Source of the DNA: Candidatus Saccharimonadota bacterium
GTDB taxonomy: Bacteria; Patescibacteriota; Saccharimonadia; Saccharimonadales; Saccharimonadaceae
DNA: 32,000 nt
NCBI GenBank assembly: GCA_000503915.1
Contig: CP006915.1
Coordinates: 780,001-812,000, forward strand
Direction of reading: 5' to 3'
Shown here: positions 4,379-19,411 of the stretch, one piece after another
How positions within the stretch are numbered: position 1 is the stretch's first letter
Layout of the letters: each line of letters starts with the position of its first letter
Program-made: the position numbers and the translations under genes
Notes under the pieces: model-generated
Told to the model about the DNA's origin: nothing
Databases searched by the model: none
The model's input: the letters and a program-made list of their open reading frames with translations, nothing else

Positions 4379-4508
4379 GAAAGCTTGCTTTCATATCCGA
4401 GACAACCCAGTGTTACATCAGTCGAAGACTGATATAACGAAGCGAGCCGAGAGGAATAAGAACTTGGTCTTATTCCCGAGGCGACCTGGTGTTAGACTTC
4501 CGCGGAAG

Positions 4509-4536
4509 TTATAGCACTGGCAAGGCGAATCACTGC
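4509..4536. repeat. direct repeat copy 2 (promoter-like TGCTATAAC on minus strand)
   Basis: See copy 1. It lies directly after the stop of the 4536..5027 gene. Confidence 0.6.
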
Positions 4537-5027
4537 TAGACTGTTAGAACAATCCTGATCACCACCACCGCTAGCGTAACCATCACCAAACTCAGACCCA
4601 GACTAACGGGCTGGACAAGCCAGGCAAACAGCACATAGCCGATTCCAAACGCAAGCACCGAGATGATAAGCACCGCGAGCCACGGGAGGTTCATGAGTAC
4701 CAGAAAAATAGTCCAAAACGACAGGAAAATACCAAGCGTCGCAAGGAGCGGACGATAGACTCGTTGTCGTACCATTAGGATCAAGCCGAGCATTGAACCG
4801 AGTACTAGTGCTACGATACTGGCAAAATCGTCCTTACTTTCGCAGCGGGCAAGCGCCACGCTGTCGCGACACATGATCGGCTCAAACACAAACCGCTCAA
4901 GAAGCAGGTAGAGCATGTATGTTAGTACTCCGACCAAAATGCCAGTTAGAAAAACATTGAGCATTGACCGCCAACTCATCGTTGCCCAGGTGCCTAGTGG
5001 ATCACTTACTTCAACCACTTTTGCCAC
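4536..5027 (-). CDS. polytopic membrane protein, unknown function
   Basis: 163 aa with 4-5 hydrophobic segments. GTG start preceded by GGGAGAG SD. Confidence 0.6.
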   Translation of the reverse strand: MAKVVEVSDPLGTWATMSWRSMLNVFLTGILVGVLTYMLYLLLERFVFEPIMCRDSVALARCESKDDFASIVALVLGSMLGLILMVRQRVYRPLLATLGIFLSFWTIFLVLMNLPWLAVLIISVLAFGIGYVLFAWLVQPVSLGLSLVMVTLAVVVIRIVLTV

Positions 5028-13356: not shown

Positions 13357-13995
13357 ATGGCTAATGACAAAGTGCGGTTCGAGCGGGCACTCAGAAAATG
13401 GGATACTCTTCATGAAGAAAAAGCATACAGTGTACCTCGTGGGTCTGGAGTAGTAGCTATACTTGCCTCCGATCGCGCTCTAGCAGACGAGAAAGCCGGC
13501 ACAGAAGATCTCGAGGCTGCCATGCGCGAGCGGCAAGCATTCCAGGACGAAGCCTATCGTATCGCCGAGACCCTCACTACAAACGGAGTTGGCACTCGCC
13601 TATTTCCGGCCTTTACTCTAGAAAATGTTAGTGAAGTATTGGCCGATCCGTCGGTCTCTTCCATTGTTACGATCGGAAACGGGAACTTATCCGAAGTGTG
13701 GGCCCACCAAGGAGTATGTGTCAGCTGGGACTTTATCGCCGATCACACCACTCACCTAAAAACCGGTTATTTCATGCAGCGTCAATGCGGCCATGTCGCT
13801 TACCACCTTTCCGTACCCCTTGGTACTTTTGCCATGGCGGATCACTCAAACGTCTTCGCAGCCCTCGATAAGTATTTACCGCCCGTACTTACGCCTGCAG
13901 ACGAAGCGTATATCACACAATTACACGATGAGCGTCGTCTCGGTATTGAAGCAGTGAGACGTTTGTTTGCTTTAGATAAAGGTCTTCTGGACTAA
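13357..13995 (+). CDS. hypothetical protein
   Basis: 212-aa ORF with no motif I recognise. TTGACA (13323-13328) plus CAAAAT ends 6 nt before the ATG. Confidence 0.55.
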   Translation: MANDKVRFERALRKWDTLHEEKAYSVPRGSGVVAILASDRALADEKAGTEDLEAAMRERQAFQDEAYRIAETLTTNGVGTRLFPAFTLENVSEVLADPSVSSIVTIGNGNLSEVWAHQGVCVSWDFIADHTTHLKTGYFMQRQCGHVAYHLSVPLGTFAMADHSNVFAALDKYLPPVLTPADEAYITQLHDERRLGIEAVRRLFALDKGLLD

Positions 13996-14191: not shown

Positions 14192-14980
14192 ATGAATGAT
14201 GACATCTACAATGAGTTGAAGGAAAGCCTGCGCCTCTCCATCTTAAAGTACGTCTCTCATAAATCCTACGACAGCAAGCATCCCCTTGACGCTTTAATTC
14301 CCCAAGAAAGAAAAATCAGATCAATCGTAGGCGGGTTAGAGACCAGCATGGGAACCACCATCTGGGAACCGCTAGCAAAGACGCTTGCAAAAAATAATGG
14401 CTTCGAGATCATATCAGAAAAGATCTTAATCCCAAGCCCTATGCCAAAAGAACTTGCCGCAGAATTAGCAATATTGATTTCCCTACGAGAATCTAAATTG
14501 ACTTGGATACCTATTAAGCAATGTGTAGCTAGATTAAGAGAGATATGTGGGAAAATCGATCGATCTCTTATCCGGGGCTACACTGCCCCACCATCAGGCA
14601 CTGGTGTAGATATACGCTTGAGAAAAGATGGCACTGAGTATGCCTACGATACAAAGACAGTTCAACCCAATCTTGGAAGCGTTAAAAGCTTTAATAAACA
14701 AATCTTAGAATGGTATGCGTATGCGCTGTGTAAAAATCCATCGCTCGATATAAGATGCGGCATAGCTTATCCCTATAATCCTTTTGAAGGTAACTTTTGG
14801 TCGCATACCCCTCATACCAAGGGCGTCCTTGAACATGGCGTTGACGCCTTCGTAGAGGATGAGTTTTGGGACTTTCTTTCTGGCTACAAAAATACCTTTG
14901 GAATCATTACAAAATGTTTTGAAGAGCTTGCTGATGAAGGATTTGGACAAGAAATCTCTGAGTTGATAAAAAAGATTTAA
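14192..14980 (+). CDS. candidate type II restriction endonuclease (PD-(D/E)xK-like; possibly TdeIII-like)
   Basis: 262 aa lying immediately upstream of, and co-oriented with, a C5-methyltransferase. GTGVDIRLRKDGTEYAYDTKT offers a D...D-x-K arrangement. AT-rich relative to the flanks. The family assignment is from memory only. Confidence 0.5.
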   Translation: MNDDIYNELKESLRLSILKYVSHKSYDSKHPLDALIPQERKIRSIVGGLETSMGTTIWEPLAKTLAKNNGFEIISEKILIPSPMPKELAAELAILISLRESKLTWIPIKQCVARLREICGKIDRSLIRGYTAPPSGTGVDIRLRKDGTEYAYDTKTVQPNLGSVKSFNKQILEWYAYALCKNPSLDIRCGIAYPYNPFEGNFWSHTPHTKGVLEHGVDAFVEDEFWDFLSGYKNTFGIITKCFEELADEGFGQEISELIKKI

Positions 14981-15032
14981 AGAGCCCTTGCATAATGCAA
15001 AGGTTACTGCAATAATGTACTCAGGGGGAACC

Positions 15033-16325
15033 ATGAGCAGTTTATACACTATCGCAGAAACCGCTGAAAAAATTGGCGTCTCGGTCGATACTATTCGTCG
15101 CTGGGAAAAGAAGGGGCTTATCAAGTCGAGACGCAACGAGCTAAACCACCGGGTATTTTCATTCGATGAAATTACCCGCATTCACCGCAAAATTTCTGGC
15201 GACTCAGAGCACGACAACAACTACAAAATTCTACAAAATCATGGCTCCAAAAACTATACAGCAATAGATTTATTTGCCGGAGCGGGCGGTACGGCACTAG
15301 GTCTTGAGCATGCCGGCTTTAAGCACGTTTTACTCAACGAATACGACAAGCACGCAGTGGCCACACTCCGACTTAATAAACCTGAGTGGAATGTGGACGG
15401 TCGAGATATTCATGAAGTTGATTTTAGTGAGTGGCGAGGAAAAGTTGACGTTATCGAGGGTGGCTTCCCCTGCCAATCATTTAGTTATGCCGGTAAGCGA
15501 CTTGGCTTCGATGATACACGCGGCACGCTCTTTCATGAGTTTGCTCGAGCCGTAAAGGAGGTGCAGCCGAAAGTTGCTATTGGAGAAAATGTCCGCGGCT
15601 TACTTAACCACGACGAGGGTAGAACGCTCAAAACAATGGTCAAAGTTTTACAAGATCTCGGATATAACGTTGCATATAAAGTTTTACGGTCACAATACTT
15701 AGACGTGCCACAAAAGCGAGAACGCCTTATCATCATGGCTGTTCGAAAAGACGTTTCTGACAAACTTGTTTTCCCGAAGGAGCGCGACTATACCGTTTCA
15801 CTTCGTGAAGCCATCGGCGACAGACCCAAGAGTGATGGTCAGCAATATTCCGAGCGTAAGTACGAGATCATGAAGCAAGTCCCAGAAGGCGGCTACTGGC
15901 GCGATCTTTCTGATGAGATTCAGCGTGAGTATATGAAAGCAAGTTATTTCCATACAGGTGGCAAGACAGGTATGGCTCGTCGCCTGTCGTGGGATGAGCC
16001 AAGTTTGACTCTGACTTGCAACCCGGCTCAAAAACAGACCGAGCGTTGCCACCCGGAGGAAACTCGTCCACTCAATGTCCGCGAATATGCACGCATTCAG
16101 ACGTTCCCAGATGACTGGCAGTTCAGTGGCTCAGTTTCTCAGCAATACAAACAAATTGGTAACGCAGTGCCAGTGAACCTTGGCTACTACATGGGAAGCG
16201 CCGCTATTCATATGCTGGACGGCACAACTTCCGACGACTTCGAGCTCGTCGATCCATTAGACCCCACGACAGACACTATTGAGGCCGATGAAAAGCAGCT
16301 GGCGCTTATCCCTGCGCTTGCTTAA
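15033..16325 (+). CDS. DNA (cytosine-5)-methyltransferase with N-terminal MerR-type HTH
   Basis: Motif I DLFAGAGGTALG, IV GGFPCQSFSYAG, VI IGENVRGL, VIII QKRERLIIMAV, IX-X TFPDDWQF...YKQIGNAVPV. The N-terminus YTIAETAEKIGVSVDTIRRWEKKGLIKSRRNELNHRVFSFDEI is a MerR-like HTH. Start chosen at the ATG after the AGGGGGA SD. Confidence 0.9.
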   Translation: MSSLYTIAETAEKIGVSVDTIRRWEKKGLIKSRRNELNHRVFSFDEITRIHRKISGDSEHDNNYKILQNHGSKNYTAIDLFAGAGGTALGLEHAGFKHVLLNEYDKHAVATLRLNKPEWNVDGRDIHEVDFSEWRGKVDVIEGGFPCQSFSYAGKRLGFDDTRGTLFHEFARAVKEVQPKVAIGENVRGLLNHDEGRTLKTMVKVLQDLGYNVAYKVLRSQYLDVPQKRERLIIMAVRKDVSDKLVFPKERDYTVSLREAIGDRPKSDGQQYSERKYEIMKQVPEGGYWRDLSDEIQREYMKASYFHTGGKTGMARRLSWDEPSLTLTCNPAQKQTERCHPEETRPLNVREYARIQTFPDDWQFSGSVSQQYKQIGNAVPVNLGYYMGSAAIHMLDGTTSDDFELVDPLDPTTDTIEADEKQLALIPALA

Positions 16326-16407
16326 TAATATTTCACTGCGTATAAAACTCATCACTCTTGGCCTTCTTGGCACTTGTAAGATTGCTATTCGCCATAACCT
16401 CTTTATT

Positions 16408-16857
16408 TTATACTACCCAGAGCTGTATCCCTAACAAAATGGCACCCGCAACAACAGCTATCAATATTGCACCCCACCATGTTTCGTGCCAGCTCTTCTG
16501 AGGGTCTGCCGTAATTTTTGTAGACAACTTGTGATTGCTTCTTGTGTTAGCGCGAGCTTGAGACGAACTTACTTGAGCAACTTGAAATGCACCCGGAGAG
16601 TTAATCATAGTTTGATTCGTTGTTTTAGAATGAAAGCCCCTCACGGATTCCTGCTCTGATGGTGTTAATTTTTGAAATCCGCGTTGATCACTCTTACCCA
16701 TCTGCTTTGCGATTATATGTAAAGCAGCAGCAGCGGAAATACTTTTCTTACGTGCAAGCCTATTAACTTTTTCGTCAAATGAGGCGGGACGAGTAATCTT
16801 GAGCTCACGAATAAGCTTATTCCTAAGGGCTGACTGTTCCTGCTTCCAGTTTGTCAT
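16408..16857 (-). CDS. tail-anchored protein, unknown function (last gene of the mini-HTH operon)
   Basis: 149 aa: soluble N-terminal domain, S/T/Q-rich linker, single C-terminal TM WWGAILIAVVAGAILLGIQLWVV. Confidence 0.55.
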   Translation of the reverse strand: MTNWKQEQSALRNKLIRELKITRPASFDEKVNRLARKKSISAAAALHIIAKQMGKSDQRGFQKLTPSEQESVRGFHSKTTNQTMINSPGAFQVAQVSSSQARANTRSNHKLSTKITADPQKSWHETWWGAILIAVVAGAILLGIQLWVV

Positions 16858-16866
16858 AGCTCATTT

Positions 16867-17025
16867 CTACTTTTTGTTACGAGGTACTCTGCGACTGATA
16901 ATGGCTGCGTCTACACCAAGTACTTTAGCAATCTCAGCAGACTTGACGCCCTGTTGCTGAAGCTGTAGCACCAACAGCCATTTGACGTCGTCAAGAATTT
17001 TTAGCATCTTATGGCTCTCGTTCAT
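16867..17025 (-). CDS. mini-HTH protein paralog 3 (52 aa)
   Basis: Below the track cutoff. MNESHKMLKILDDVKWLLVLQLQQQGVKSAEIAKVLGVDAAIISRRVPRNKK. Its ATG overlaps the upstream stop as ATGA (17025-17022). Confidence 0.5.
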   Translation of the reverse strand: MNESHKMLKILDDVKWLLVLQLQQQGVKSAEIAKVLGVDAAIISRRVPRNKK

Positions 17026-17237
17026 TTCTGGGTCCCTTTCTTCATTCGACTACGTGCCATGCGCACGGCTGGTTCCGTCATACCTGCAACGGTGGCAATT
17101 TCAGCGTTCGACAAATCAAACTTATCGAGAAGCTCGATTTTCTCTGCATTGCTCTTTTGCTCAGAGAGACTCTCCAGAAGCAGTGCTGCTAGAAGATCAA
17201 GTTTTTTTGAAATTGTAGTTAACAGTTTTTCGTTCAT
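17022..17237 (-). CDS. mini-HTH protein paralog 2 (71 aa)
   Basis: MNEKLLTTISKKLDLLAALLL...LLDKFDLSNAEIATVAGMTEPAVRMARSRMKK. Its ATG overlaps the upstream stop as ATGA. Confidence 0.55.
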   Translation of the reverse strand: MNEKLLTTISKKLDLLAALLLESLSEQKSNAEKIELLDKFDLSNAEIATVAGMTEPAVRMARSRMKKGTQK

Positions 17238-17461
17238 CTCTTACCTTTCCGCTGAACTGCTAATTCCTTGCTTACATGGTTTGGCGTTTTATTAAGAATA
17301 CTGGCAATCTCCGATGGCTTAAGGCCAAAACTGTCAAGCATTACTATTTGGTCTCGCAGTAAGACTTTTGAGCCCGGCTCAATAGGATTAGCAAGTAAGG
17401 CAATCATTACACTCAGCTTGCGACTAACTTCTTCAAGTAGCTGTATCCCTCTCTCGTTCAT
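17234..17461 (-). CDS. mini-HTH protein paralog 1 (75 aa)
   Basis: Trimmed to MNERGIQLLEEVSRKLSVMIALL...MLDSFGLKPSEIASILNKTPNHVSKELAVQRK. The track start 17476 lies inside the -10 box. Confidence 0.55.
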   Translation of the reverse strand: MNERGIQLLEEVSRKLSVMIALLANPIEPGSKVLLRDQIVMLDSFGLKPSEIASILNKTPNHVSKELAVQRKGKR

Positions 17462-17467
17462 ACTTAC

Positions 17468-17495
17468 ATTATACACATTAGTAATGCTTATTCAA
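17468..17495 (-). promoter_or_regulatory. promoter of the mini-HTH operon, leaderless geometry
   Basis: Minus strand TTGAAT (17495-17490), 16 nt, TATAAT (17473-17468), then 6 nt to ATG 17461. TAGTAAT motifs at 17479-17485, 17497-17503 and 17565-17571. Confidence 0.6.
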
Positions 17496-17694
17496 ATAGT
17501 AATCTTACTATATCCAAGTAGCATCAATTGTTTGTATCTTAGTTATTGATATGGCAGATTATTTTAGTAATATAATATCGCAGATATATGAGGAGAGGGC
17601 ATCCCAGCCAAATACCTAACATTTGCCTTAACAACATTTTCTGCCCTACACTTAGCTTCACACCGAGTGATAACAGTGCCAGAATGCGCCGCAA

Positions 17695-17727
17695 ATAAAA
17701 ACACCTGCACTTTTCGTACAGGTGTTT
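17695..17727 (-). terminator. intrinsic terminator after the DUF378 gene
   Basis: AACACCTG/CAGGTGTT stem. On the minus strand it is followed by TTTTT. Confidence 0.7.
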
Positions 17728-17748
17728 AGTGAAAGTAACTAGGAAGTA

Positions 17749-17958
17749 CTAAGCTCCTTCCTTCTTTGACATGCCCATGACCCAGTCGATGAGTACCCAG
17801 AGTGCTGCAAGGCCGACGACGGCATAGACGACGCGGGCACCGACCGAGTCAGCGCCAAATAGGCTGTCGACGAGGTTGTAGTCGAAGAATCCGACGAGGC
17901 CCCAGTTTAAACCTCCGATGATTACGAGTAATAATGCGACGGTGTATACAGCTTTCAT
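17749..17958 (-). CDS. DUF378-domain small membrane protein
   Basis: IGGLNWGLVGFFDYNLVDSLFG...VYAVVGLAAL matches DUF378. GGGAGGA SD and TGCTATACT promoter upstream. Confidence 0.75.
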   Translation of the reverse strand: MKAVYTVALLLVIIGGLNWGLVGFFDYNLVDSLFGADSVGARVVYAVVGLAALWVLIDWVMGMSKKEGA

Positions 17959-18095
17959 AAGCTATCCTCCCATTAATATGTACCTTCAGTATAGCACCAA
18001 TTTTAAGTTACCATAGAGGTGGGGTAAAAGTTAAACCCCGAGAAATAGAAACGATTGCATAATAACTAAAAACTCGAGTCTCAACAGCCCAATCG

Positions 18096-18842
18096 CTAGT
18101 CTAAAACGCTTTCAGTCACAGGCTCCGGATTGCTTTTCCTGATAGCTTTTCGCTTCGTGCGAAGCCGTGGCTTCGGAAATTCAACTTCCTTAACAATGAT
18201 CTGGCGTAATGATTCCGCAACGTCTTCAATTTGAAAATATATTCCAGTTTGCTCTTTCAAATCATTACGCAAACGCTTAACAATTTCTTCTGAGTAAAGG
18301 ATTTTTGAGAGATTCTCAGGATTTAAGGCATTCGTTCTTTTCCAAAACGTTTCAAGTTCATTTTTCTCGACAGCTTTTTTAGTGAGATTCCAGAGAAGCT
18401 CCGGCGCTTTCTTTAAATCATCAGAATCGGTTAGATTGATTTTAAAAATGAGAGTTGTCGAAATCGGTTTGCCAAAATTCACCCTATAAAGCTGAACTTC
18501 CCTTCCGTTCATGAGCAAAATCCAGTCGATGCCTTCGTTGGCTGCGTACGACAAACTCTGCCGCAGATGCTTTTCATTTATATCGAGATCTATCGATTTC
18601 ACTTCAATCACAAAATGCTTTTTACGCTTCAGCTGAATAACGTAATCAGCGTACTCTGACTTAATTCGATACTCTGTTTTTATCTCCTCGAGCTCTTGGT
18701 AACCAAGTATCTCAGTAAGAAAGCTATTGGTCATGATCCTCGTGTCGGCTTCATTGCGATTTGAAAAGCCTTTTCGCAAATATTTTCGCTTATACTCTTT
18801 TAAGCCTTCTCGAAGTGTCTTCAATTGATTATCTGTTGCCAT
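18096..18842 (-). CDS. HsdR-N-terminal-like (PD-(D/E)xK) nuclease-domain protein, solitary
   Basis: NEADTRIMTNSFLTEILGY, ADYVIQL, VIEVKS, QSLSYA, ILLMNGREVQLY reproduce the type I restriction enzyme R-subunit N-terminal domain pattern. No helicase, HsdM or HsdS nearby. AT-rich. Confidence 0.6.
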   Translation of the reverse strand: MATDNQLKTLREGLKEYKRKYLRKGFSNRNEADTRIMTNSFLTEILGYQELEEIKTEYRIKSEYADYVIQLKRKKHFVIEVKSIDLDINEKHLRQSLSYAANEGIDWILLMNGREVQLYRVNFGKPISTTLIFKINLTDSDDLKKAPELLWNLTKKAVEKNELETFWKRTNALNPENLSKILYSEEIVKRLRNDLKEQTGIYFQIEDVAESLRQIIVKEVEFPKPRLRTKRKAIRKSNPEPVTESVLD

Positions 18843-18907
18843 ACTATTCCTTTGCCTTATATCTGTCCCAATAATACACCGTTAAAGATATGTTTGGAGA
18901 TTCTACC

Positions 18908-19411
18908 CTATATGGCATCGAGCTCAAACTGCCGAGCGATAGCAGCGCCGAGGAGTGCATAGCTGGTGAGCGCTCCGTAAAAGCGGCGCGATGCCAGATT
19001 GACGACTTCAACGGCGCGTGGCGTGTCTTCACGAAAGGAATCGAGTGCGAAATCGAGATAGTGTTGCAGCTTGAACTCTTTCAGCTGCGAAACTAAAGCA
19101 ACAGCATTTGCATTGACCGTAAACTCATCTTCACTTATCTCTGCACCCACTAGCATAGCCATGGCTTCGAAACTTGCCACACCATGATCGATCGCTTCAA
19201 TATGTAAATCATTTTCATAAATTCTACCCGAGCCACGGACCGCTGCCGGATGGCCAACCCGAAATGCCCAAGAGAATCTTTCGCCCTGGAGATGGCCTTG
19301 ATGTACGACGTCGGGATTCGCCAGCATCAGCTCAAGCAAATCAGCATTGGTATCACTCAAATCTTCATGCGGAAAGCGCGGCTGCAACTCCAAACCGGTG
19401 ATAATACTCAT
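18908..19411 (-). CDS. hypothetical protein
   Basis: 167-aa ORF with no recognised motif. Confidence 0.5.
   Translation of the reverse strand: MSIITGLELQPRFPHEDLSDTNADLLELMLANPDVVHQGHLQGERFSWAFRVGHPAAVRGSGRIYENDLHIEAIDHGVASFEAMAMLVGAEISEDEFTVNANAVALVSQLKEFKLQHYLDFALDSFREDTPRAVEVVNLASRRFYGALTSYALLGAAIARQFELDAI

Follow-up and report, generated by a model that had tools for sequence, protein, structure and literature searches.

The 32,000-nt stretch of contig CP006915.1 considered here (the window, in the following) belongs to Candidatus Saccharibacteria bacterium RAAC3_TM7_1 and contains on its reverse strand a compact block of four short genes, g1 to g4 (Table 1). The same locus is also found in GCA_003537595 and in three metagenome assemblies. 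The first three genes, of which g1 corresponds to ...G0905, code for tiny helix-turn-helix (HTH) proteins, and the fourth (RAAC3_TM7C00001G0902) codes for a protein that ends in a single transmembrane (TM) helix. Judged by their arrangement, g1-g4 appear to constitute a genuine operon, co-transcribed and translationally coupled, in which mini-HTH proteins are followed by a tail-anchored protein. Comparison with related loci (numbered L001 onwards) further shows that A-B-D-T, as present in the window, is the minimal layout of an operon type that is conserved and self-contained, whereby a row of mini-HTH genes from several sub-families, designated by letters, precedes a terminal protein, T.

An earlier reading of the same stretch, the original prediction, had described genes of 75, 71 and 52 amino acids (aa), each beginning with MNE and joined by two ATGA stop/start overlaps, and 9 nt later a 149-aa protein with a soluble N-domain and a C-terminal TM segment; the block was said to be AT-rich and to lie between a restriction-modification (R-M) system and a solitary nuclease-domain gene. 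All of this holds. The genes, starts and overlaps are in the sequence, structure prediction and hydropathy agree on the architecture of g4, the GC content of the block is 0.41-0.46 as compared to 0.50-0.55 in the flanks, and the neighbours are a TdeIII-type restriction endonuclease (REase) with a C5 methylase and an HSDR_N_2/MmeI_N-like protein. Translation of g1 is unlikely to begin at a GTG codon that lies 15 nt 5' of the ATG and overlaps with the -10 box. One existing annotation (L001) has overlooked g3. The shared MNE start can be ruled out as a functional N-terminal motif, as relatives begin with MEE, MED, MDK, MSD and others.

Table 1. Features of the mini-HTH operon and its surroundings, in positions of the window.
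Feature	Position	Strand	Description
g1	17461-17234	-	75 aa from ATG; sub-family A mini-HTH
g2	17237-17022	-	71 aa; sub-family B mini-HTH
g3	17025-16867	-	52 aa; sub-family D, minimal three-helix HTH with basic tail
g4	16857-16408	-	149 aa; terminal protein T, tail-anchored
ATGA overlap g1/g2	17237-17234	-	
ATGA overlap g2/g3	17025-17022	-	
-35 hexamer TTGAAT	17495-17490	-	from consensus scan
-10 hexamer TATAAT	17473-17468	-	ends 6 nt before ATG 17461
Half-site TAGTAA, candidate operator	17510-17505	-	GTAA ends 9 nt upstream of -35
Half-site TTACTA, candidate operator	17484-17479	-	in -35/-10 spacer; starts 5 nt after -35
TTACTA abutting -35	17502-17497	-	part of tight palindrome TAGTAA-GA-TTACTA
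Distal motif copy	17565-17571	-	ATTACTA on coding strand; about 100 nt upstream of start
Intrinsic terminator of upstream DUF378 gene	17727-17699	-	12-bp stem, then T-run
TdeIII-type REase and C5 methylase	14192-16325	+	convergent neighbour of operon
HSDR_N_2/MmeI_N-like 248-aa protein	18842-18096	-	HSDR_N_2 E 3e-7, MmeI_N E 2e-4
20-codon stub (MANSNLTSAKKAKSDEFYTQ, then stop)	16395-16333	-	own Shine-Dalgarno sequence; 12 nt after g4; 5' end of EcoRI-family adenine methyltransferase

Context look-ups and pattern scans reveal about 25 independent loci in which 3-7 tightly packed mini-HTH genes are followed by T. This layout occurs in L007-L020, L025-L037 and L040-L042, the loci L012-L039 having been retrieved with the g3/D-family alignment. 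Clustering of the small proteins defines the sub-families A and B (paralogous), C, D, E/H, F and X, and shows that their order is constant, namely A-(X)-B-(C or E)-D-(F)-T. The three paralogs of the original prediction are not equivalent but belong to distinct orthologous sub-families (A, B and D), each with its fixed place. A, B and D, followed by T, are present in every complete Patescibacteria-type array, and the minimal A-B-D core of the window recurs in L017 and L034; only A/B-like paralogs, and no D, precede T in L040-L042. The packing is extremely tight (76 of 80 junctions of 12 nt or less, 29 of them overlapping), which implies translational coupling and probably also a fixed stoichiometry of the products. 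The window has the same attributes: A, B and D in order, junctions of no more than 12 nt and a T protein with the N-domain shared by most T proteins. The host metagenome-assembled genomes (MAGs) belong mostly to the Candidate Phyla Radiation (CPR)/Patescibacteria (Saccharimonas, Parcubacteria, Wolfebacteria). The range probably reaches diderm bacteria and archaea as well, in view of the Kdp and LptD neighbours on the L040 contig, which looks diderm, and the PCNA neighbour on the L042 contig, which looks archaeal.

Two apparent departures from the common plan were rejected. A fusion of A and B in L030 (3277-3723, a 148-aa open reading frame, ORF), which might have served as "Rosetta-stone" evidence for interaction, stems from a single-base deletion in an A-run and is possibly an assembly error. 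The seeming loss of gene B in L026 (3868-4063), L027 and L032 is no loss, as the ORF is intact with a non-ATG start, probably GTG or ATT. The census leaves out L021-L024, L038 and L039, where a solitary, distant D-like gene of 55 codons (MDKKTHQLLEDIKKLLILQLVINGANSEEIANILK...) recurs without an array; in two loci it lies directly downstream of ruvB, and two of the MAGs that carry it are labelled Gammaproteobacteria, a label that may be wrong. A reduced variant is seen in L043 (4682-6666), in which a MarR-like 108-aa protein overlaps a 74-aa protein of the A family and a CHAT (caspase-like) protease follows about 400 nt after the A-family gene, such that CHAT may be a further effector type. A 212-aa ORF of the window (13357-13995) also has a very weak CHAT match (E 0.08).

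The g1 protein is a member of a genuine family, whose clusters are each rare. An exhaustive HMMER search of 1.84 billion representatives assigns 126 clusters to the A family of g1 at E<=1e-3, nearly all of 64-109 aa, and the A-family profile finds 142 matches, nearly all of them metagenomic singletons, among 5.8 billion proteins. The claim of three paralogs in the original prediction stands for g1 and g2, which match each other by BLASTP (E 2e-4), fall into one BLAST cluster and are thus clear paralogs; against the hidden Markov model (HMM) of the A family they score E 2e-30 and 7e-14, respectively. It does not extend in the same sense to g3, which has no pairwise match to g1 or g2 and belongs to the D family (E 1.5e-31 against its HMM, compared to 7.5e-4 against that of A). 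A profile-profile match with hhalign (E 6e-6 across 27 HTH columns) indicates that g3 is a more distant HTH relative of the pair. Among the members of the array, D has the highest conservation (alignment A4).

The AlphaFold2 (AF2) model of g1, built on a 79-sequence alignment, is confident (mean predicted local distance difference test score, pLDDT, of 82.5) and comprises a long hydrophobic N-terminal helix (residues 3-24) followed by a three-helix HTH (35-44, 49-56 and 60-74). A Foldseek search with this model against the PDB returns generic HTH proteins only, with nothing below E 0.5, and scans of g1-g4 and 64 A-family members against Pfam, PHROGs, NCBIfam and PADLOC yield generic HTH matches for the array proteins, all of them sub-threshold. 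The best Pfam match of g1 and g2 is Sigma70_r4_2, at 13.1 and 18.8 bits and below its cut-off of 25.7, and the same family is the best sub-threshold match in 6 of the 64 A-family members. The label of isolated sigma region-4 units, which the original prediction had attached to the HTH segments, is not borne out by matches of this strength. HTH_3, the Xre-type family, matches neither g1-g3 nor any of the 64 A-family members.

All operon genes are under purifying selection, as seen in Nei-Gojobori comparisons of orthologous pairs. The ratio of non-synonymous to synonymous rates (dN/dS) is 0.09-0.25 in every sub-family, with 0.12-0.17 for A orthologs (a single near-identical pair gives 0.44) and 0.11-0.22 for B orthologs; the corresponding ratio of uncorrected proportions (pN/pS) is 0.20 for g3 and its L006 ortholog. 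For g4, dN/dS is 0.077, and each of its three parts is constrained, the linker (pN/pS 0.24) as well as the N-domain and the TM tail (0.16 each). With the gene set conserved in other genomes and its sub-families far from a dN/dS of about 1, the grounds that the original prediction had named for discarding it (no such set elsewhere, no coding signature in relatives) therefore fall away.

The promoter proposed for g1, TTGAAT-16-TATAAT, is recovered by a consensus scan as the best site within 16000-19000, matching 10 of 12 consensus positions. The terminator of the DUF378 gene parts the operon from that gene and forms the 5' boundary of the module. A strong promoter of sigma-70 type can be placed in 19 of 20 arrays examined, and all 19 have a TTGACA-like -35 element at the equivalent place. 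The leaderless start of the original prediction is strengthened by the same comparison, since an in-frame ATG lies 6-7 nt past the -10 box in nine loci (the window, L007, L008, L012, L016, L025, L026, L029 and L031), and this geometry is thus conserved in the Saccharibacteria-type clade. The Parcubacteria-type arrays (L013-L015, L017, L034-L036) contrast with these leaderless ones in having AT-rich leaders of 34-44 nt, without a Shine-Dalgarno sequence, that include a conserved 'TTTACTTAACAGTCAATTAT'-like stretch directly before the ATG of gene A.

The motif TAGTAAT does occur at the three places reported by the original prediction (17479-17485, 17497-17503 and 17565-17571). Seven copies are present in the whole window, compared to 3.5 expected, so that the presence of three within 93 nt represents a real cluster, albeit by a post hoc test. 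Its suggested role as operator has been refined to TAGTAA/TTACTA half-sites that are conserved at fixed positions around the -35 box. In the window, two half-sites form an inverted repeat (17510-17505 and 17484-17479) whose arms are 20 nt apart and bracket the -35 box. When seven promoters of the Saccharibacteria type, drawn from three lineages, are aligned, every one of them has GTAA at a distance of 9 nt upstream of the -35 box and (T/A)TAC 5 nt downstream of it, while the 9 nt between GTAA and the box differ. The tight palindrome TAGTAA-GA-TTACTA, with 7-nt arms that are 100% complementary and 2 nt apart, is an element specific to the window. The inverted GTAA/TTAC half-sites around the -35 box are thus a plausible candidate for an autoregulatory operator.

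The terminal protein of the window, g4, has a single close homolog, P0002 (75% identity). In its AF2 model the N-domain (residues 1-75, pLDDT 77-90) is helical, residues 79-125 form a disordered linker, and a TM helix (127-148) closes the chain, which agrees with a Kyte-Doolittle 19-residue maximum of 2.64 at residues 131-149. The helix lies at the C-terminal end, with no extracytoplasmic sensor part, and on the strength of this model g4 would qualify as a tail-anchored membrane protein. The N-domain of about 70 aa is common to g4 (E 1.4e-26 against the T N-domain HMM) and to most T proteins, including those that bear HEPN domains (alignment A5); in some lineages a winged HTH takes its place at the N-terminus. 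A profile search with this domain gives only three matches, a number that is limited by the word index and is no measure of the range of effectors.

Beyond the N-domain, the T proteins diverge into several types. A Swt1-type HEPN domain scores above the Pfam cut-off in L014, L017, L019 and L040 (43-47 bits, cut-off 27.5) and just under it in L008 and L016, while the T protein of L041 resembles this type by eye with no Pfam match. In L018 the domain is of the Ymh type (Hypoth_Ymh, 55 bits, cut-off 25), and the T proteins of L035 and L036 look Ymh-type by sequence, weak PADLOC HEPN matches being found for the L036 protein only. Schlafen/AlbA_2 domains are encoded in L013, L015 and L020 (SLFN_AlbA_2, 71-78 bits, cut-off 25.3). 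A helical tail matching PADLOC PDC-M14B (about 1e-6 to 1e-8) is found in L012, L027 and L036, and the L007 protein is placed in the same group by its similarity to L012. T proteins with a single TM helix are those of the window, P0002 and L010, and g4 has no HEPN match in the Pfam scan. The Rx4H motif, as read from the sequence, is intact in the HEPN-type proteins of relatives, occurring as PTRNVIAH (RNVIAH), PSRNAIAH (RNAIAH) and RNKTHH. Some loci have a second candidate effector after the array: in L036 (3635-4919) a PDC-M14B-like T precedes a Ymh-HEPN-like T, with the shared N-domain in both, in L035 (3148-4282) a Ymh-like T precedes a 147-aa protein with an RNRMIH motif, and in L015 (1593-3150) a Schlafen-type T precedes a Ymh-HEPN protein.

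The clearest case of exchange is offered by L013 (3224-4166) and L014 (3225-4166), which derive from different MAGs with unrelated flanks and share 94.4% DNA identity over 943 nt that cover the promoter and genes A, B, E and D. The shared stretch starts 115 nt upstream of A and stops exactly at the stop codon of D, after which L013 continues with a T of Schlafen/AlbA_2 type and L014 with one of Swt1-HEPN type. The unit thus travels as a cassette and swaps its effectors. A constant control part joined to a swappable toxic part matches the pattern of many defence systems.

Three weak, independent and sub-significant signals relate the T N-domain to AROD, a domain of Rpa1, a subunit of archaeal replication protein A. 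In a profile search against the PDB the domain matches AROD (8aa9, E 0.012) with a convincing residue pattern; the L012 protein (4430-4600) matches the NCBIfam "replication factor A" model PRK08402 (E 1.8e-4); and the model of the g4 N-domain (16633-16857) superimposes on AROD in Foldseek with a root-mean-square deviation of 1.4-1.8 A over about 50 residues, although nothing in the PDB falls below E 0.5. AROD is a protein-protein contact domain that does not bind DNA (PMC10122647), which fits a tethering role for the N-domain of T. The two resemble each other in their three-helix fold, yet AROD is acidic, archaea-specific by description and fused to OB folds, whereas the domain of the T proteins is basic (in g4 its charge is about +9 by sequence count), mostly bacterial and fused to effectors.

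The surroundings of the operon bear traces of an R-M gene that was once attached to it. Matched against plasmids by tblastn, the stub directly after g4 shows 80% identity (E 3e-3). Of the 12 matches listed, 11 are N-termini of genes annotated as "adenine-specific methyltransferase EcoRI family", the remaining record having no annotation. Only 7 nt separate the end of the stub from the stop codon of the C5 methylase, which is convergent with it. DNA homology of the window with L005 and L006 stops at 16393, the start codon of the stub, and in L005, the P0002 locus and closest relative, an MmeI-family type IIG enzyme lies in the stub's place, 8 nt after T. The stub is thus what is left of a methylase gene that formerly followed g4, and it testifies to a deletion or recombination in the past through which R-M cargo, once in one transcript with g1-g4, was lost. 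The C5 methylase (14988-16325, forward strand) carries an N-terminal HTH of MerR type (MerR_1, E 2e-12) and may therefore regulate its own R-M unit apart from the mini-HTH operon. On the other side, the DUF378 gene separates the operon from the gene of the solitary HSDR_N_2/MmeI_N protein, which could be a free-standing nuclease domain or a remnant of an MmeI-type enzyme.

Other arrays are found in comparable company. An SNF2 helicase, the array and an N6_N4 methylase follow one another in L026, L027 and L030, the methylase lying 29 nt after T in the first two. The array precedes DpnI and an AAA_21 ATPase in L034, and a Ymh-HEPN protein and HsdS in L015; it follows GmrSD in L036 and is surrounded by T1RH, ResIII and a methylase in L041. 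Read from their motifs, hsdM and hsdS enclose the array of L017, and a C5 methylase precedes that of L018. About half of some 22 lineages are thus in R-M or defence contexts. A search with the DNA of the window from 16300 to 17700 reveals no similarity to GenBank phages or PLSDB plasmids, and tblastn with g1 finds none in them either. Two pattern scans of IMG/VR viral contigs gave no relatives, a result limited by the patterns, which does not prove absence from viruses.

The explanation toward which these observations tip, if only slightly, is a candidate abortive-infection or toxin-antitoxin-like module of defence islands, with a toxic effector under the control of an HTH complex that represses itself. 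The HTH subunits would assemble into a hetero-oligomer through their hydrophobic N-terminal helices, occupy the inverted GTAA/TTAC half-sites around the -35 box and thereby repress their own operon, while holding or tethering T in an inactive state through its N-domain. Infection, or loss of the element, would disturb the complex and release T, which could then arrest or kill the cell, by RNA cleavage in the HEPN versions and, in the TM version of the window, by membrane insertion, oligomerisation and membrane damage. Such release and killing would make the module an abortive-infection or toxin-antitoxin-like back-up within defence islands, with a logic analogous to that of PrrC beside a type I R-M system. 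Among the ideas of the original prediction, those of an effector and of phage exclusion gain support from the HEPN and Schlafen domains at the position of g4 in relatives and from the frequent R-M and defence neighbours.

Several points weigh against this explanation. The T protein of the window has no enzymatic domain, and its lone TM helix could be a mere anchor. Recognisable defence neighbours are absent from L007/L012, L008, L010, L014, L019 and L040, about half of the lineages, and housekeeping genes (MurB, FolD, PBP, Kdp) are the neighbours in such loci. Conservation of the operator derives from only three independent lineages, the PADLOC matches cover effector domains and generic HTH segments rather than a whole system, and the role of repressor or antitoxin gives no evident reason for 3-7 different HTH subunits. 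A bolder idea, less likely than not but with a substantial chance of being true, is that the module represents a new class of conflict or immune system, in which a hetero-oligomer of 3-7 distinct mini-HTH subunits would itself be responsible for sensing and control and would license an effector tethered through the AROD-like domain. The complex might, for example, read DNA that is foreign or perturbed, or act as a decoy that diverts phage proteins aimed at HTH proteins resembling sigma region 4. If this were true, it would be the first type of defence system whose main hosts are CPR/Patescibacteria, and archaea and diderm bacteria would have relatives of it.

The main rival, which we consider unlikely on balance, is a transcription-control cassette for adjacent R-M genes, an elaborate analogue of the R-M controller (C) proteins, whose HTH proteins would time or limit the expression of a downstream methylase or REase after transfer to a new cell, with T in an accessory role. 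C-protein units are known for their small HTH proteins, for an inverted repeat at the -35 box and for leaderless transcripts. The array lies directly upstream of R-M genes, probably in one transcript with them, in three independent lineages (the stub of the window, MmeI in L005 and the methylase in L026/L027), and the DNA that the window has in common with L005 stops precisely where the R-M cargo gene starts, at its start codon. However, no R-M gene is found downstream in L007, L008, L010, L013, L014, L019 and L040, no member matches HTH_3, the family of the C proteins, and a regulator has need neither of 3-7 subunits nor of a terminal protein with a HEPN, Schlafen or TM part; the swapping of effectors behind a constant array is typical of conflict systems, not of regulators. 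We give still less credence to the idea that the operon is the regulatory or addiction region of a small mobile element or island (an integrative element, or a degraded prophage or plasmid), with the HTH proteins as repressors or excision regulators and T as a post-segregational killer that stabilises the island and has no anti-phage role. The AT-richness of the block, the 94%-identical cassette in unrelated genomic contexts and the rarity of the clusters, mostly singletons, would agree with it, as would two genes read from sequence: in L016 a serine recombinase lies immediately upstream, and in L013 an ORF resembling a tyrosine recombinase lies about 1.1 kb beyond T. Yet no recombinase adjoins the array at most loci, the flanks are often ordinary chromosomal genes, and no relatives were detected in IMG/VR (two pattern scans) or in GenBank phages and PLSDB plasmids (tblastn/blastn). 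This idea also overlaps the favoured one, since the toxin logic is alike and only the beneficiary differs, and sequence can hardly separate the two.

A split sigma/anti-sigma system, in which the mini-HTH proteins would act as free region-4 modules on RNA polymerase and g4 would sequester them, is very improbable, in spite of the Sigma70_r4_2 matches, the presence of sigma region 4 of extracytoplasmic function (ECF) factors among the weak Foldseek matches, and the single-TM topology that g4 shares with many anti-sigma factors. The best of the sigma matches stays at 18.8 bits (cut-off 25.7), no protein of the operon matches sigma region 2, and no anti-sigma domain, such as the zf-HC2 or RskA type, is detected in g4, whose terminal TM helix leaves no room for an extracytoplasmic sensor. 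The C-terminus of T is moreover interchangeable, and cytoplasmic HEPN or Schlafen proteins occupy the position of g4 in most relatives, which is incompatible with a conserved anti-sigma role; the membrane anti-sigma suggested by the original prediction has accordingly been dropped. Chance ORFs, or a decaying, functionless remnant, have a negligible probability. Very short proteins, the oversight of g3 in the L001 annotation and the truncated methylase might have suggested as much, but conservation and dN/dS refute it: in every gene, divergence at synonymous sites is saturated or greatly exceeds that at non-synonymous ones, the order is kept across phylum-level distances, and the AF2 model of g1 is a confident one.

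The CPR/Patescibacteria account for a large share of bacterial diversity, and their defence repertoire has been inferred almost entirely through models derived from cultivated bacteria. The module described here joins effector domains of familiar kinds (HEPN, Schlafen, TM) to a control part that is unfamiliar, namely as many as seven tiny HTH proteins, co-translated and in fixed order. Should it serve in defence or addiction, it would embody a new principle of sensing and regulation, in a compact cassette of 1-2 kb amenable to heterologous testing, and would supply profile families for genes that are now annotated as hypothetical or, on account of their length of only 50-80 aa, missed. The arrays also lend comparative support to leaderless transcription in Saccharibacteria, and the N-domain of T is a hint of relatives, in bacteria, of the "archaea-specific" AROD domain.

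A mini-HTH row with a swappable effector is absent from the curated families, the solved structures and the searchable literature, in agreement with the original prediction, which knew of no system with this layout. The components, and the logic of a constant part plus a variable effector, are already known, whereas the multi-HTH layout is apparently undescribed. Within PADLOC-DB 2.0 no single system has all its components matched, and similarity is confined to single domains of PDC-M34B, PDC-M14B and PDC-M64B; PDC-M34, PDC-M14 and PDC-M64 are computational, unvalidated candidates for phage defence, and a literature search found no paper that mentions them. The HEPN domain of T matches PDC-M34B at E 1e-24 to 3e-34, and PDC-M64B is matched weakly by 12 of 64 A-family members (best 2.9e-5). 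The g3 protein and those of B, D, E and X have marginal, generic HTH matches (E 0.004-0.014), and no PADLOC model is matched by g2, g4 or the C and F proteins.

What the operon shares with pairs of ECF sigma and anti-sigma factors is an HTH similar to sigma region 4, along with a protein that crosses the membrane once; it differs from them in that it has neither sigma region 2 nor an anti-sigma domain and that soluble nucleases replace the membrane protein in relatives. The C proteins share with it the position of small HTH proteins at the head of R-M genes, an inverted repeat at the -35 box, in the arrays a candidate operator, and the leaderless first gene. They are, however, single Xre-type (HTH_3) dimers, as opposed to 3-7 different non-Xre subunits with an effector-bearing T. 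Many arrays, unlike C proteins, have no R-M partner, and the half-sites are unrelated in sequence to known C-boxes. The place directly upstream of a REase gene, which is customary for a C protein, is not that of the window's array, as g4 and the methylase stub come next. Type II toxin-antitoxin systems are comparable in their small operons, tight coupling, combination of a predicted toxic domain (HEPN) with putative DNA-binding partners, and mobility, as well as in the autoregulation that is predicted here. They consist of two genes, compared to 4-8 in the array module, in which the HTH genes come first and the effector last, the subunits form orthologous sub-families, and the candidate toxin has its own N-terminal helical or winged-HTH domain; no antitoxin family is recognised among the array proteins.

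Counterparts in proposed logic are the R-M-linked HEPN nucleases. Anantharaman et al (PMC3710099) linked HEPN families (Abi2/Swt1, Ymh) to R-M systems as a multi-pronged defence, in a survey that does not mention the mini-HTH array. PrrC with the type Ic system EcoprrI, as well as the Abi2/Swt1 and Ymh families, resemble many T proteins in that HEPN domains lie beside or inside R-M operons, and in both cases a latent toxin would provide a second line beside the R-M system. The g4 protein of the window, unlike the nucleases of PrrC type, has a TM helix only and no HEPN domain. Another difference lies in the means of control, which in PrrC and RloC is exerted by a fused ABC ATPase and in the array module would fall to a separate row of 3-7 mini-HTH proteins.

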